From: Escherichia coli
GTDB taxonomy: Bacteria > Pseudomonadota > Gammaproteobacteria > Enterobacterales > Enterobacteriaceae
DNA length: 64,000 bases
Assembly (NCBI RefSeq): GCF_041886205.1
Contig: NZ_CP169029.1
Reading direction: 5' to 3' (one strand)
Shown piece after piece: positions 58,401 through 64,000 of this stretch; position 1 is the first letter of the stretch; each line of letters opens with the position of its first letter. The position numbers are program-made.

Positions 58401-61400
58401 CACAAGAACCTGAAGATAGAACGTTAACATTCAATCAGCAAGTAGAAGTTTTAGGTCTCAAATTTGCTGTAAAAGAAAAAAATGAAGTTTGGCAGTATTC
58501 ATTGCCAGGCATTATTGAAAATAACATTATTTCTACAAAACAACATTTCTTTAGCAGTAAGCTGTTTAAGTATGTAATGCTTTTTTTCTTTTTGCTATCA
58601 TTTTCTTTGCTTTTTATATTGTTAATGCCAGTAATGATCCGCAGCTGAGACATATCGATAAAATTCTTGTAAACAAAAACAGGAATTATGAAATTTTATA
58701 TGGTAGAGATCATGTTATCTATATCAATACCAATAGTTTGGATGAAGCAGTCTGGGTCAAACAAGCACTGGAAAAAAATCAACCTGGAAAGCCAGTACGG
58801 GTGATAAATCCTGATGATGAATCGATACGAATTTTTTCATGGCTTGCTGATAATTTCCCTGATTTACAATATTTTAAACTTCAGCTATTAGATGCCAGTA
58901 ATCCCAGACTGACCGTGAGTAAGCAACGGAATGCTATCACACAGCAACTAATCGACAATCTTATTAAAGGGTTACTACAAACTATGCCATATGCCAGCAA
59001 TATAAGTATTGCGGTATTAGATGATAATGTATTGGAAAGTCAGGCTATTGAAACATTGTCAGCGATAGGTCTTTCTTATGAAAAATATAAAACAGCTAAC
59101 AATGTGTATTTCAATATCATTGGTACGTTAAGTGACAGTGAATTAAATAAAATTAATAACTATGTTGACGAATATTATAAACAATGGGGTAAACAATATG
59201 TAAGATTTAATGTGAATTTGAAAAATCAGGACACAAATAATAGTTCATTTAGCTACGGAGATAACCGATTCGAGAAGTCTCAAGGTAGCAACTGGACGTT
59301 TCAGGAATAATTGAGGAGGACTTATAGCAGATTGGAATGGTTATATTATGGATATCAGCAAACAATTTGATCAGGGCGTTGATGATCTGAACCAGCAAGT
59401 TGAAAAAGCGTTGGAGGTTTTAGCAACCAATCCCTCCGACCCGAAATTTCTTGCCGAATATCAAAGTGCATTAGCTGAGTATACATTATATCGAAATGCG
59501 CAATCTAACGTTGTAAAAGCGTATAAAGATCTTGATTCAGCAATCATACAAAACTTCCGCTAAACTGGATAAGGATTTTATTATGTCAGTAAGCAATATG
59601 CCACCTATTGATAGAGCTGAGCAATCAACTGCTCATGAAATACAGCAAGCGAAAGTGATTGATTTAAATGACCGGGTTCTCAATCTTGACAACCCGGATG
59701 ATAAAATGATCTCCGCTTTTGCCAACTATGCTGTACAAACTGAAAATTGGCAGCAAAATGCGTTACAAGCATTAAGGTCTGATAAAAAGGGGTTAACTCC
59801 TGAAAAATTATTAGTCTTGCAGGATCATGTGCTTAATTATAATGTCGAGGTTTCATTGGTGGGAACATTAGCAAGAAAGATTGTCGCTGCAGTTGAGACG
59901 TTGACCCGCTCATGAAATATATATCATTATTATTGTTTATCCTGCTGTTGTGCGGCTGCAAGCAGCAGGAATTATTGAACCATCTTGATCAACAGCAAGC
60001 TAATGATGTCCTTGCTGTTTTACAAAGACATAATATTAATGCTGAAAAGAAGGATCAAGGCAAAACTGGATTCTCAATCTATGTTGAACCAACGGATTTT
60101 GCTTCTGCGGTGGATTGGCTAAAAATCTACAATCTCCCGGGTAAGCCTGATATTCAAATATCGCAGATGTTCCCTGCAGATGCACTCGTTTCATCTCCAC
60201 GAGCGGAAAAAGCAAGGCTATATTCTGCTATTGAGCAGTGGTTAGAGCAATCTCTCAAAATTATGGATGGCATTATTTCTTCGAGAGTACATGTTAGTTA
60301 CGATGTTGATAATGGCGATAGTGGTAAAACTGCTTTACCAATTCATATTTCTGTACTTGCAGTATATGAAAAAGATATCAACCCAGAAATAAAAATAAAT
60401 GACATCAAGAGATTTATTGTTAATAGTTTTGCAAGCGTACAATATGAAAATATTTCTGTTGTATTGTCAAAACGAAGAGACATTATTGAGCAAGCACCAA
60501 CATATGAAATTAGCGAACTTGTTTTTGCTTATGATAAGGCTATGCCGGTTTCTATCTTACTTGCATTAATATCCGTAGCGACTTGCTGGCTGTTATGGAA
60601 GTATAGGGCCATTCTAACTAATTTAGTCAGGTTGAAAATTAAGTAGACATATGAGAGCGTTATGAATCTTGCCCTAAGAAAGATTATATATGATCCAATT
60701 AGTTGTATTCATCCTCAACGAGTAAGCTTGAATAATACACCTATTAACAATCCGGTGCTTAGATCTATTACCAATGAAATGATTGTTCTGCAGTACAATC
60801 TTTCAGTTGAACATTTTAATCTGAATAGTTCACTTATTTAATACATAAACAATTGGAATTTATTTCCATTGATCTGTTTATTCAGTGGTTATCACTTTTA
60901 TCGAGAAAGGTTTGCAGAACGCGGATTTTTTTATAAGGTTCCTGCTGTGCTAAGGGATTATTTATCAGCTATACCGGTGGAAATAAATGAAAAGGCACGA
61001 TACAAACCCGGCATCGCTAACTATCACAATATCATCACATGTGGTTTTTCAACGTTGTTACCCTATATAAGGCAACAACCATTGGCAATGCAGCAACGAT
61101 TTAATTTATTATTTCCTGATTTTGTTGATCACATACAATTGCCGTTACCACTTGCATCAACTCTTTTAGAGAGAAATACATTTTATGCGAAAAAAATAGA
61201 GATGAGCTTGATAAAATCTCCTGCAAATGGTGTTGTGATTAAAAAAAATTTCTGATGGATTGAAAGAAATAGTTTCTCTTAAAGAAAATATCCTTATTGA
61301 AACCAACGCAAAAATTCAGAGCATTGAGGTAAAGAGAGAAGAAAAATTTATTCAAGGTTATTATGATGGCTATACAAAAGGCATTATTGATGTGATGGAT

Positions 61401-64000
61401 AATTTTATACCCTTGATAAGCTTGTTGAGCTCAGAACTAGAAAAAAAGAATAAACATGATAAACGATCTGAAGAGTATATTGTTAAAATCCTCAGAGGAA
61501 GTTGATGTTTTTATCAAAATTTTTGAAAGTTGGAGAAAAAAATTACCGGCAATATCAGGTCCTGTAAATCTCTATATACCTACCAGTTTCAAAAATAAGT
61601 ATCTTGAAGTAGAGTCATATTTTGTCGACAAATCAATATGGAATGTCCATATTACATTTCATGATGATAAGCGTTTTGTGTTTTTTACCGATCAATTTAT
61701 TGCTGAATTTAGTCCGCAGGAATTTGTGGATAATTGTGAGCAATATTTAATTAATAATCATTGTTTCGCCCCTGACAAGGTTAACGAAATCTGCGAACAA
61801 GCCAGACATTATTTAGTTGAAAAAATGTTTGAAACACATTCTTTGGATATGAATAATTCTGTTTTGGCAAGCCCTGAGGACTTATAGCTCACTGGCTCAG
61901 GTTTAATGATTTGAATATAATCTAATTGTAATATTTTAATCATCTCATGATTTTTTAATGCCTGTGGTATTTTTTTACGCAAAAATTTTATTTTTAATTA
62001 TATTTCATTATTATTTCATCAATGTATTCTTTGGATTTTGCTTATAATAATGGAAGGGATGATTATAAATGAATACGTTAAAGCATTTACACTCAGGATG
62101 AATATATGGGAAAAATTAAAATTGTACTTTCAGATCAGCAGCCGTTTATGATTGATGGGATAATTGGATTTCTCGGACATTATCCTGATTTATATGAGGT
62201 TGTTGGGGGCTATAAAGATCTGAAGAAAGCTATAGCGGAGTGTAACAAATCTACAGCCCAAATATTTATTTTAGGAGAATTTGCAGGTGGAATGATGGGG
62301 TCCGAACTCGTAAAATGGGTTAAATCGCATAAGATAGATGCTCATATTATTACATTTGTAGCAAAGATGCCGTATATTGATTCAATAAAATTGCTTGAAG
62401 CAGGTGCGAAAGGATGCGTATGGAAAACCAGTCACCCGGCGAAACTAAATCGTGCTATTGATTCGATTAGTAATGGTTACACTTATTTTGATAGTGTACA
62501 TATGGATTGTGAAAAAATATCTTCCAGGTATTCCTCTGATAATCAACTTACAAATCGTGAGTCAGAAATATTACAACTCATAGCTGATGGTAAAACAAAC
62601 AAAGAAATCGCTAATTTCTTGCAGTTAAGCAGGAAAACAGTCGAAACTCATAGACTCAATATCATGAAGAAATTAGATGTTCACAGTGGTATCGAGTTGA
62701 TCAAAACAGCTTTACGTATGGGTGTTTGCACTATATAAAAAAAAGAGGCTTTAGGCTCATTTTGCTGAAGCCTCACGATTGTCTAGTTCATTAAGCCTGG
62801 TATATACAATATATATTTTGGGGCATATTGCTGTCTCTTTTTTTGGTTATCCATTGCAAAACCCGCATTATAAGTCCCCAGGCATTGCCACGTTACTCCA
62901 CAACGTGAAAAATGGTTATATAAAATCTCGGTTCCTATTTTAATGTTCAGACAAGGGTTATCTAACAAATCTCGTTCATCTTTTATTATTCCACGTTTTT
63001 TTAACAGGGGAATATGCATCTGGTTTATCTGCATTAACCAATAATCTAAACTCTTTATATTGTTATTCTTATCGCTGTTCTTGCCTATGCTATCCTTTTT
63101 TAGATTGCTTTCAACAAGAGCGATAGCTTTAATTAAATTTGGTTCGATTCTGAACATTGTTCCTGCTTCATTAGAGCAAGAGTTGCTGGCGAAAGACATT
63201 TTTGTAATAAATATACAAAACGTGAAGATGGTTAAGAATTTAACTTTTGGTGAGCGCATATTTTTTCATGTGTGAGGATTGAATGAAAGGAACGAGATAC
63301 TATTATAAAAGTATCTCGTTATGATTTATTTGGTCAATCGTCTACCATTCAATTTTATAGTAAGGTGAGATAGGATTATCTTCTGAATACATATCATTTT
63401 GAAAAGGCGCCATCCATGTTGAAACTATAAATGCTTGTATTTGATCTGTATCAGTAGCACTGGTGTTGATGTGTTTATCTAATGATACGACTTCATCACC
63501 CGTTGCATTCGCTATATTTGAACTTTGAGATAAATTATTGATACCGATTGGATTAGTCATAAAGCTCCCTTTTTTAATTGTCCAGGCCAATGGTCTTTAC
63601 ATCATACTTTTAACTCTAGAGCATTTTAAATATCTTGCAATAAGGTGAATATCTTAGATATTTTTATCTCTGTTGTTTAAATAACAAGTTGCATACATCT
63701 AAATAATAAAATTGCGTCAATAAAAATTTATCGCATACAAATTCTCGTCAGCTGCTTTAATTTCAAAATGTTGTCAATTATAACTCGATGGCTTTCACTC
63801 TCAGTTTCTTTATAGTAGAGTTTAATGTTGTTTTTCAGCGGGTTAGGCACATACATATCTACACATTCTTTTATCACAACTGCTTTTCGTCTTCTGGGTT
63901 CGAGTTGTAGTGATTTGTCTATACAAATCCTTGCCTCTTCAATTTTTTCATTATGAAAGTGGACTAGTGCCCTATAGTAGTAGAGAGAGGCTATATCAGT

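Follow-up and report, generated by a model that had tools for sequence, protein, structure and literature searches.

The interval between eprK and ygeK in this Escherichia coli genome almost certainly holds two dead ETT2 genes, orgA (sctK) and an orgB (sctL)-type gene, which have decayed by mutational attrition. It lies in a 64,000-nucleotide stretch of contig NZ_CP169029.1 (assembly GCF_041886205.1), hereafter called the window. Compared with uninterrupted alleles, the two genes in the window are hit by a nonsense substitution and by three small deletions, which bears out the interruption of orgA/orgB-like genes proposed in a first-pass annotation. All four short ORFs listed there are present (Table 1), although the end given for ORF1 (60840) was one base short. 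Their description as lying in alternating frames holds for ORF3 and ORF4, whose frames differ, but not for ORF1 and ORF2, which lie in a single frame with a TAA of that frame between them (frames of ORF1 to ORF4, as start modulo 3: 2, 2, 0 and 1). On the minus strand, ORFs overlapping the interval do not exceed 57 aa.

Table 1. Features of the orgA-orgB interval and its neighbours (window coordinates).
Feature	Position	Strand	Description
eprK (prgK/sctJ homologue)	59912..60646	+	Uninterrupted; upstream neighbour fixing the operon context; Pfam YscJ_FliF, E=5e-12
orgA (sctK) pseudogene	60662..61242	+	Spans the ancestral start and TAA stop codons; collinear with AR_0149 OrgA (193 aa)
ORF1	60662..60841	+	59 aa; OrgA residues 1-59 and premature stop
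Lesion 1	60839..60841	+	Nonsense TAC>TAA, Tyr60>stop (Y60*), orgA codon 60; C>A at 60841
ORF2	60869..61255	+	128 aa; internal TTG start; mechanical ORF
orgB (sctL)-like pseudogene	61185..61887	+	Ancestral ATG, overlapping the orgA 3' end, to stop; collinear with WP_001227531.1
Lesion 2	61190..61196	+	A8>A7 in poly(A); -1 frameshift where orgA and orgB overlap
Lesion 3	61241..61248	+	2-bp deletion (AG) in ancestral AAAAGAAAAA, leaving an A8 run; -2 frameshift
ORF3	61260..61505	+	81 aa; internal TTG start; mechanical ORF; OrgB residues 27 to ~89, then an out-of-frame tail
Lesion 4	61441..61447	+	A9>A7 in poly(A); -2 frameshift splitting ORF3 from ORF4
ORF4	61456..61887	+	143 aa; ATG start, equal to internal Met93; OrgB residues 93-235
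ygeK-type LuxR-family regulator	62106..62738	+	Downstream neighbour; 210-aa ORF; relatives named "LuxR C-terminal-related transcriptional regulator"

Identification of orgA

The start of orgA lies directly downstream of the end of eprK, the position expected in an SPI-1-type operon; in relatives, eprK is annotated as an EscJ/YscJ/HrcJ family protein. ORF1 matches positions 1-53 of the OrgA_MxiK model TIGR02555 (E=1.8e-17, 63.7 bits), and ORF2 matches positions 69-183 (E=1.6e-36, 125.8 bits), so that the matches to TIGR02555/PF09482 are collinear and do not overlap on the model. The uninterrupted OrgA of strain AR_0149 (locus L002, 2263-2844) reaches 246.4 bits against a cut-off of 118.6. With a TAA at codon 60 and the -1 frameshift of Lesion 2, no uninterrupted coding sequence of ~190 aa is left in the window, and its orgA is a pseudogene of the OrgA/MxiK (SctK) family. 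The label "internal stop" is given to orgA by PGAP in the genomes of LHM10-1, HS and wlxctx60.

Identification of the orgB-Type Gene

HMM searches assign ORF3 and ORF4 together to an OrgB/SctL-type protein, just as ORF1 and ORF2 are assigned to OrgA/MxiK, in agreement with the gene pair first suspected. ORF4 matches positions 88-200 of the OrgB model NF011850 (E=9e-11). ORF3 alone has no family match, and it is collinear with the intact OrgB in the alignment. In AR_0149, the uninterrupted counterpart is a 235-aa protein (WP_001227531.1; locus L002, 2786-3493), whose ORF begins 59 nt before the orgA stop, directly following sctK. This protein matches positions 2-200 of the 210 of NF011850 (E=1.4e-14). 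Full-length relatives, 217-243 aa long, match the same model in 28 of 28 cases, and 15 of them also match the SctL model TIGR02499. The score of WP_001227531.1 on NF011850 is 54.3 bits against an equivalog cut-off of 278; judged by sequence, the ETT2 protein is thus homologous to OrgB/SctL but, by the NCBI threshold, not an equivalog. A Pfam search with the uninterrupted protein and with ORF3 returned no family even at E-values up to 10. PGAP names the OrgB homologue "hypothetical", even when it is uninterrupted. In the window, three frameshifting deletions leave orgB without an uninterrupted coding sequence.

The AlphaFold model of the OrgB-like protein (pLDDT 78.9) consists of an N-terminal hairpin (strands at residues 11-20), an 85-residue helix (21-105) and a C-terminal alpha/beta domain (129-225). 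The predicted structure has the architecture of FliH/SctL proteins, in which a long coiled-coil helix lies between a short N-terminal segment and a globular C-terminal domain. Its top structure matches in the PDB are two chains of FliH, 5b0o_F and 5b0o_E (probability 0.99, E ~0.01), with target-normalised TM-scores of 0.55 and 0.51, followed by the V-ATPase stalk subunit E; no PDB match of this fold search was found at E <=0.001. The sole PDB match of the sequence search, a beta-xylosidase (E=0.27), was judged spurious.

Lesions and the Origin of the Four ORFs

Lesions were called against the intact allele of AR_0149, and all four are visible in the 5-way and 15-way alignments; the states of the A-tracts were read from 16 loci. 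The comparison with AR_0149 and ETEC4075, which encode a 193-aa OrgA and a 235-aa OrgB-like protein, agrees with the interruption of both genes. Lesion 2 brings a TAG into frame five codons past the ATG of orgB and makes the orgA frame continue in that of orgB. The frameshift of Lesion 3 leads to the end of ORF2 at the TGA at 61253-61255. ORF2 is chimeric: OrgA residues 70-178 are followed by OrgB residues 5-20 and by a three-residue out-of-frame tail, KNF.

Since ORF1, ORF2 and ORF4 match OrgA/OrgB family models, the four ORFs are more than chance ORFs. They are simply what an ORF finder returns between lesions, two of them beginning at an internal TTG. In this strain, orgA is stopped at codon 60 by the C>A substitution and is also frameshifted near its 3' end by a 1-bp poly(A) contraction, which has cost orgB its start context as well; orgB has two more frameshifts, the AG deletion and the A9>A7 contraction. 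Three of the four lesions are of a type that slipped-strand mispairing could produce, as they lie in or beside A-runs, and the island is AT-rich. The lesions have probably built up stepwise under relaxed selection, after essential parts of the system were gone (eivJICAEGF deleted, other genes frameshifted), and the two genes presumably no longer give a product or serve a function. ORF4, with its natural ATG, is a widespread type of fragment and could conceivably be translated independently as a C-terminal fragment of OrgB.

Distribution in Other E. coli Genomes

Of 5426 complete E. coli genomes, 235 carry the nonsense allele at codon 60 (exact 35-mer with A) and 2771 carry the wild-type codon (exact 35-mer with C). 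The 2.2-kb query is spanned to 80% or more in 3078 genomes. The best matches to this query are nearly all 90-99.9% identical, only 2 of 3514 being below 90%.

HS, LHM10-1 and wlxctx60 form the clade of the window, and all carry Y60*. LHM10-1 is 99.9% identical to the window over the 2.2-kb query, without a single substitution within orgA-orgB, where HS has four; over ~12.8 kb, wlxctx60 and LHM10-1 are both 99.9% identical to the window. The AG deletion is common to the window, LHM10-1 and HS, and wlxctx60 is identical to the window at that site. The first tract (61190) is A8 in HS, LHM10-1 and wlxctx60, in contrast to the A7 of the window; at this single homopolymer site, a sequencing error is possible. 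A7 recurs there independently in O158:H23, 98197 and EC-7215, and the A8>A7 change arose in at least four lineages. At the second tract (61441), A7 is also found in wlxctx60 and, independently, in SW070917. HS and LHM10-1 differ from the window in having A8 at this position, as do K-12, 357900, MB07081, 98197 and EC-7215. HS further differs by an IS1 in eprK.

Of the 14 further genomes in the comparison, only AR_0149 and ETEC4075 retain uninterrupted copies of both genes. These share orthologous genes and operon order with the window but have uninterrupted ORFs that overlap by 59 nt, and in ETEC4075-type alleles the second A-run is itself interrupted (AAAAAAACA). The ETT2 of EAEC 042 has also been reported to be without ablating mutations (PMC2808357). 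Elsewhere, other lesions occur: O157 has an additional A, H3 lacks a C at position 52 and MB07081 a T at position 384, K-12 has a 5' truncation associated with IS2, and the tract lengths vary. In public data, fragments of the 143-aa ORF4 type are widespread (clusters P0016 and P0017) and share 94% identity with the intact protein; 409-aa orgA-orgB fusion ORFs are present there as well (P0002).

In O157:H7 Sakai and K-12 (b2859, b2858 and b2857), the genes likewise stand after eprK and before ygeK, at 96-97% nucleotide identity to the window. For Sakai, orgA corresponds to ECs3715, the split orgB to ECs3714 and ECs3713, and ygeK to ECs3712 (PMC3977695, Table 1). As in the window, orgB is split there, with one ORF of 261 bp and another of 432 bp (PMC3977695, Table 1). 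Unlike in the window, orgA of O157 is intact and orgB carries a +1 A insertion. In K-12, orgA is annotated as truncated, its 5' end being lost beside IS2, and orgB is frameshifted by A9>A8, so that the lesions differ from those of the window. Patterns of orgB pseudogenes have been described to track phylogeny (PMC5422975).

The ETT2 Context and the Type III Secretion Homologues

The region is ETT2 by its location at tRNA glyU, its gene order and its nucleotide identity. A tRNA-Gly(CCC) is located at 38032-38105, and its 3' end is repeated at 51236-51268. An inserted element of 13 kb separates glyU from the island. The order epa - eprHIJK - orgAB - ygeK - ygeI/ygeH next to glyU is the same as in loci L015 and L016. 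Deletion of the eivJICAEGF block is frequent in ETT2 (PMC5422975), and in relatives 99.9% identical over the stretch only an eivJ remnant is annotated from it. These near-identical relatives are further annotated with frameshifts in epaO, epaS and a lytic transglycosylase gene, and with eprH in pieces. In the window, too, eprH is split, and a deletion in a T-run of this gene is common to the window and wlxctx60.

In Salmonella SPI-1 (orgA/orgB) and Shigella (mxiK/mxiN), the SctK/SctL homologues, related at the family level, likewise stand downstream of prgK/mxiJ; in contrast to these genes, those in the window are pseudogenes. OrgB of ETT2 is a distant homologue, given its score far below the equivalog cut-off and the lack of a Pfam match. 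In working injectisomes, OrgA (SctK) connects the inner-membrane ring with the sorting platform in the cytoplasm, and the OrgB (SctL)-type protein forms the spoke from this platform to the ATPase. SctK binds the cytoplasmic domain of the inner ring and the SctQ pods, and SctL spokes join SctQ to the ATPase (PMC7762205; for the nomenclature, see PMC7232297).

Selection and Alternative Explanations

Between intact lineages, dN/dS is 0.15 for orgA and 0.26 for orgB. Differences among the degraded lineages are nearly all nonsynonymous; the synonymous to nonsynonymous ratio between the window and 357900 is 1:13, which differs from the intact-lineage ratio (Fisher's exact test, p ~0.002). This excess weighs against the proposal, rejected here as extremely improbable, that the four ORFs represent genuine small genes conserved in this form, or a split but functional SctK/SctL pair, even though the annotation of many genomes lists ORF3-type and 143-aa ORF4-type fragments as "hypothetical protein" CDSs. 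The ORF boundaries are lineage-specific, uninterrupted 193-aa and 235-aa alleles are common, ORF2 and ORF3 need an internal TTG, and ORF2 joins pieces of two different proteins. The reduction of the eivJICAEGF region to an eivJ remnant in the closest relatives also speaks against functional small genes. A promoter and terminator scan of 57.8-62.2 kb gave nothing above shuffle expectation (21 promoter-like sites versus 22.6 expected) and therefore lends no support to independently transcribed fragments. The mutational attrition of ETT2 proposed in the first-pass annotation is supported. It is very unlikely that errors of sequencing or assembly in homopolymer runs account for the frameshifts and that the genes are less damaged than they seem: three of the four lesions do lie in or create A-runs, and A8>A7 at 61190-61196 is missing in the closest relatives, but the nonsense codon is a substitution that is identical in 235 independently assembled genomes, and the AG deletion, the A7 at 61441 and the eprH deletion are all shared with members of the clade. 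Over 12.7 kb, moreover, the window differs from its relatives by an ordinary mix of SNPs with a few run-length changes, and both genes stay inactivated even if the 61190 lesion is an error.

The poly(A) tracts might also act as phase-variation switches, or transcriptional slippage might bypass them, in either case leaving some production of full-length OrgB or of an OrgA-OrgB fusion. Tract lengths do change repeatedly and independently (at least four A8>A7 events at the first tract; A9, A8 and A7 at the second), A7 as the only lesion lets the orgA frame run into orgB and gives the 409-aa fusion ORFs, and in the Shigella Mxi-Spa system full-length mxiE needs transcriptional slippage (PMC7762205, citing Penno 2005). 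This explanation is nevertheless highly improbable for the window, as the TAA at codon 60 is beyond bypass by slippage on a run, rescue would take the right slip at three separate A-runs in one transcript, and partners required for function are deleted. In addition, both tracts are only ever contracted relative to the intact A8 and A9, and no restored frames occur in the degraded clade among the aligned loci. A working system is ruled out in the window because of the orgA nonsense codon, the AG deletion and the missing eiv genes; a switch is conceivable in other strains only. Even for strains with run-length lesions only, it is very unlikely that the A8 run of the overlap and the A9 run of orgB are hypermutable or slippage-prone switches. 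Were it so, replication slippage, or transcriptional slippage as for Shigella mxiE, could toggle or leak OrgB, or yield a 409-aa SctK-SctL fusion, and the "pseudogene" calls in ETT2 would in part reflect regulation.

Implications

Decay by mutational attrition has already been published for ETT2 and is ordinary gene decay. The window adds one allele combination (Y60*, A8>A7, delAG and A9>A7) and little else beyond a correct annotation: the four "hypothetical protein" ORFs are better annotated as two pseudogenes, orgA/sctK and orgB/sctL. The recurrent run-length changes make the two A-tracts poor phylogenetic markers and call for caution with automated pseudogene calls. The decay of ETT2 represents a textbook piecemeal loss of a horizontally acquired secretion island.

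Lesions in orgA and orgB of ETT2

The four short ORFs that the first-pass annotation had placed at 60662-61887 are all present in the ORF list surveyed for 57-64 kb of the window. The sole discrepancy in their coordinates is the end of ORF1, which is 60841 with the stop codon included, instead of 60840. The observation holds up except for one point of description: the "alternating frames" apply to the last two junctions only. The frames are 2, 2, 0 and 1, so ORF1 and ORF2 share a frame and are split by an in-frame stop, without a frameshift. On the minus strand, no open frame exceeds 57 aa over this interval.

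Features of the ETT2 orgA-orgB region and its surroundings (window positions)
Feature	Position	Strand	Description
glyU	38032-38105		tRNA-Gly(CCC)
405-aa ORF	49935-51152	-	adjoins the right glyU repeat
eprH (prgH/sctD homologue), ORF	58130-58648		172 aa
eprH, ORF	58738-59310		190 aa
eprK	59912-60646		YscJ/PrgK homologue; upstream gene
ORF1	60662-60841	+	59 aa, ATG start
Lesion 1	60841		C>A; orgA codon 60, TAC (Tyr) to TAA
ORF2	60869-61255	+	128 aa, TTG start
Lesion 2	61190-61196		orgA/orgB overlap run, A8 to A7
Lesion 3	61241-61248		AG lost from ancestral AAAAGAAAAA; A8 run remains
ORF3	61260-61505	+	81 aa, TTG start
Lesion 4	61441-61447		run inside orgB, A9 to A7; -2 shift
ORF4	61456-61887	+	143 aa, ATG start
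ygeK	62106-62738		LuxR-type regulator; downstream gene
Lytic transglycosylase (iagB-like)	62783-63259	-	158-aa ORF

Family models bear out the proposed gene identities. Both OrgA/MxiK models, Pfam PF09482 and NCBIfam TIGR02555, are matched by ORF1 (positions 1-53) and by ORF2 (positions 69-183), collinearly and without overlap, and ORF4 matches NF011850 (OrgB) at positions 88-200. The same search with ORF3 alone gave no match. Alignment with AR_0149, in which both genes are uninterrupted, and with other genomes revealed four frame-breaking differences in the window, and each of the four ORFs is explained exactly by these lesions. ORF1 represents OrgA residues 1-59. Lesion 2 moves the orgA frame into that of orgB, with a TAG five codons past the orgB ATG (61185-61187), and lesion 3 is a -2 shift leading to TGA at 61253-61255. 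Starting at an internal TTG, ORF2 consequently runs from OrgA residues 70-178 into OrgB residues 5-20 and ends with three out-of-frame residues, KNF. ORF3, too, opens at an internal TTG (OrgB residue 27) and is out of frame past lesion 4, while ORF4 begins at OrgB Met93 and ends at the natural stop.

Distribution among E. coli genomes

With a 2.2-kb query, the locus was found in 3514 of 5426 complete E. coli genomes, chromosomal in all; best-match identity is 90-99.9% in nearly all of them, with just two records below 90%. Exact 35-mers centred on codon 60 place the TAA allele in 235 genomes, E. coli HS among them, and the TAC allele in 2771. Both genes are uninterrupted in only two of the 14 other genomes compared (AR_0149 and ETEC4075). 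Two O157-clade genomes carry +A at reference position 765, H3 has delC at position 52, MB07081 has delT at position 384, and K-12 has lost the orgA 5' end beside IS2; run lengths also vary among the other compared genomes.

In a neighbour-joining tree of the region, the A8>A7 change of the first tract has at least four origins (the window, EC-7215, 98197 and O158:H23). At least three of the four have a nearest tree neighbour, at a distance of 0 to 8 substitutions, in which A8 is retained; for 98197 the distances cover some of its neighbours. The second tract is shortened to A8 across the whole clade that includes the window, with a further contraction to A7 in both the window and wlxctx60 and a separate one in SW070917.

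In E. coli HS (1312-2823 of its locus), which also has the window's orgA nonsense allele, an IS1A insertion splits eprK. This is a further independent lesion of the same operon.

Attrition and its alternatives

Three alternatives to attrition were weighed: sequencing error, small genes conserved as such, and rescue by slippage. The A7 at 61190 is the sole lesion private to the window relative to wlxctx60 and LHM10-1 and lies in a homopolymer, so it could in principle be a sequencing error. Independent assemblies corroborate the remaining three lesions. Differences between the window and these two relatives over 12.7 kb are of an ordinary kind, SNPs mixed with a few changes in run length. As to small genes conserved as such, dN/dS (Nei-Gojobori, with the orgA/orgB overlap left out) between the two uninterrupted lineages is 0.15 for orgA and 0.26 for orgB. 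Among degraded close relatives, changes are nearly all nonsynonymous: the window and 357900 are separated by 1 synonymous and 13 nonsynonymous differences, and the window and EC-7215 by 0 and 14. The ratio differs significantly between degraded and intact lineages (Fisher's exact test, p about 0.002), on small counts. Such a contrast is what would be expected of once-constrained genes that are now drifting.

Where A8>A7 is the sole lesion, the orgA frame runs straight into orgB, resulting in a 409-aa fusion ORF that is found in public protein sets. One such sequence, P0002, representing 61 member sequences, matches OrgA through residue 178 and then OrgB from residue 5. Gene callers predict this OrgA-OrgB (SctK-SctL) fusion in O158:H23 (2263-3492 of its locus) and in the public sequences P0002-P0009 and P0012. 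Since transcriptional slippage is known for Shigella mxiE (PMC7762205), a leaky or switchable state is conceivable by analogy in A8>A7-only strains. Slippage has no bearing on the window, where a nonsense codon occurs as well, together with a deletion outside the tracts.

Attrition of ETT2, as first proposed for the interrupted orgA and orgB, is supported. Such decay has precedent in the literature, where ETT2 is said to be widespread and under mutational attrition (Ren et al. 2004, as cited in PMC3977695, PMC7232297 and PMC2808357). In the Sakai gene table of PMC3977695, orgA is ECs3715 (582 bp) and orgB is in two pieces, ECs3714 (261 bp) and ECs3713 (432 bp). According to PMC5422975, orgB pseudogene patterns track phylogroup.

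Island context

The annotation of matching genomes comprises eprH, needle protein, sctI, EscJ family, OrgA/MxiK, hypothetical proteins, LuxR regulator, lytic transglycosylase, ygeI and ygeH, which is that of the ETT2 island and agrees with the review gene table (PMC3977695). In relatives 99.9% identical over 51.2-64 kb, epaO (YscQ family), epaS (YscU family) and the iagB-like lytic transglycosylase are frameshifted; the parts of the window concerned are 51239-57100 and 62783-63259. Only an eivJ remnant is annotated there and the eivJICAEGF block is therefore gone. The window's eprH is split by a 1-bp T-run deletion at about 58580, compared with the uninterrupted 393-aa gene of LHM10-1 and HS; wlxctx60 shares this deletion and its eprH is likewise split. 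Judging from gene content, an apparatus could not be assembled from the window's island, with or without working orgA and orgB, because no other eivJICAEGF gene is annotated in those relatives.

The 3' 33 nt of glyU are repeated (97%) at 51236-51268, the start of the window's island, and the repeats flank an insertion of roughly 13.16 kb between glyU and ETT2. In the close relatives wlxctx60 and LHM10-1, ETT2 directly follows glyU. NCTC11023 and strain 5735 match in part, and integrases and a DEAD/DEAH helicase are annotated in these matches. From these sequence features, the insertion looks like a tRNA-targeted integrative element.

The uninterrupted OrgA and OrgB proteins

The PGAP annotation of AR_0149 and of ETEC4075, which is more divergent, has a 193-aa OrgA/MxiK protein (246 bits to TIGR02555, cut-off 118.6), followed by a 235-aa protein whose ATG precedes the orgA stop by 59 nt. 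The latter matches NF011850, "linker protein OrgB", at model positions 2-200 of 210 (E=1.4e-14), although its 54 bits are far under the equivalog cut-off of 278. It has no domain in a Pfam search and no relative in a PDB sequence search. Searched exhaustively with HMMER, 1.84 billion representatives yielded 54 relatives, many of them full-length (217-243 aa) at 20-28% identity. All 28 aligned relatives match NF011850, and 15 match TIGR02499 (SctL).

In the AlphaFold model built from the relatives' alignment (mean pLDDT 78.9), a short hairpin at the N-terminus is followed by a single 85-residue helix and a C-terminal alpha/beta domain. Nothing in the PDB matched this model at E <=0.001. The top matches are FliH, the flagellar SctL homologue (5b0o, probability 0.99, E about 0.01), and the V-type ATPase peripheral-stalk subunit E. 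The family-model matches and the FliH-like model lead us to treat the protein as a probable OrgB/SctL-family member, distant from Salmonella OrgB.

The NCBI pipeline labels this uninterrupted homologue (2786-3493 of the AR_0149 locus) and its orthologues only as "hypothetical protein". PMC7762205 summarises what SctK (MxiK/OrgA) and SctL (MxiN/OrgB) do in the sorting platform. Family models fall short of the ETT2 OrgB branch, and sorting-platform completeness is thus easily misjudged from annotation alone.
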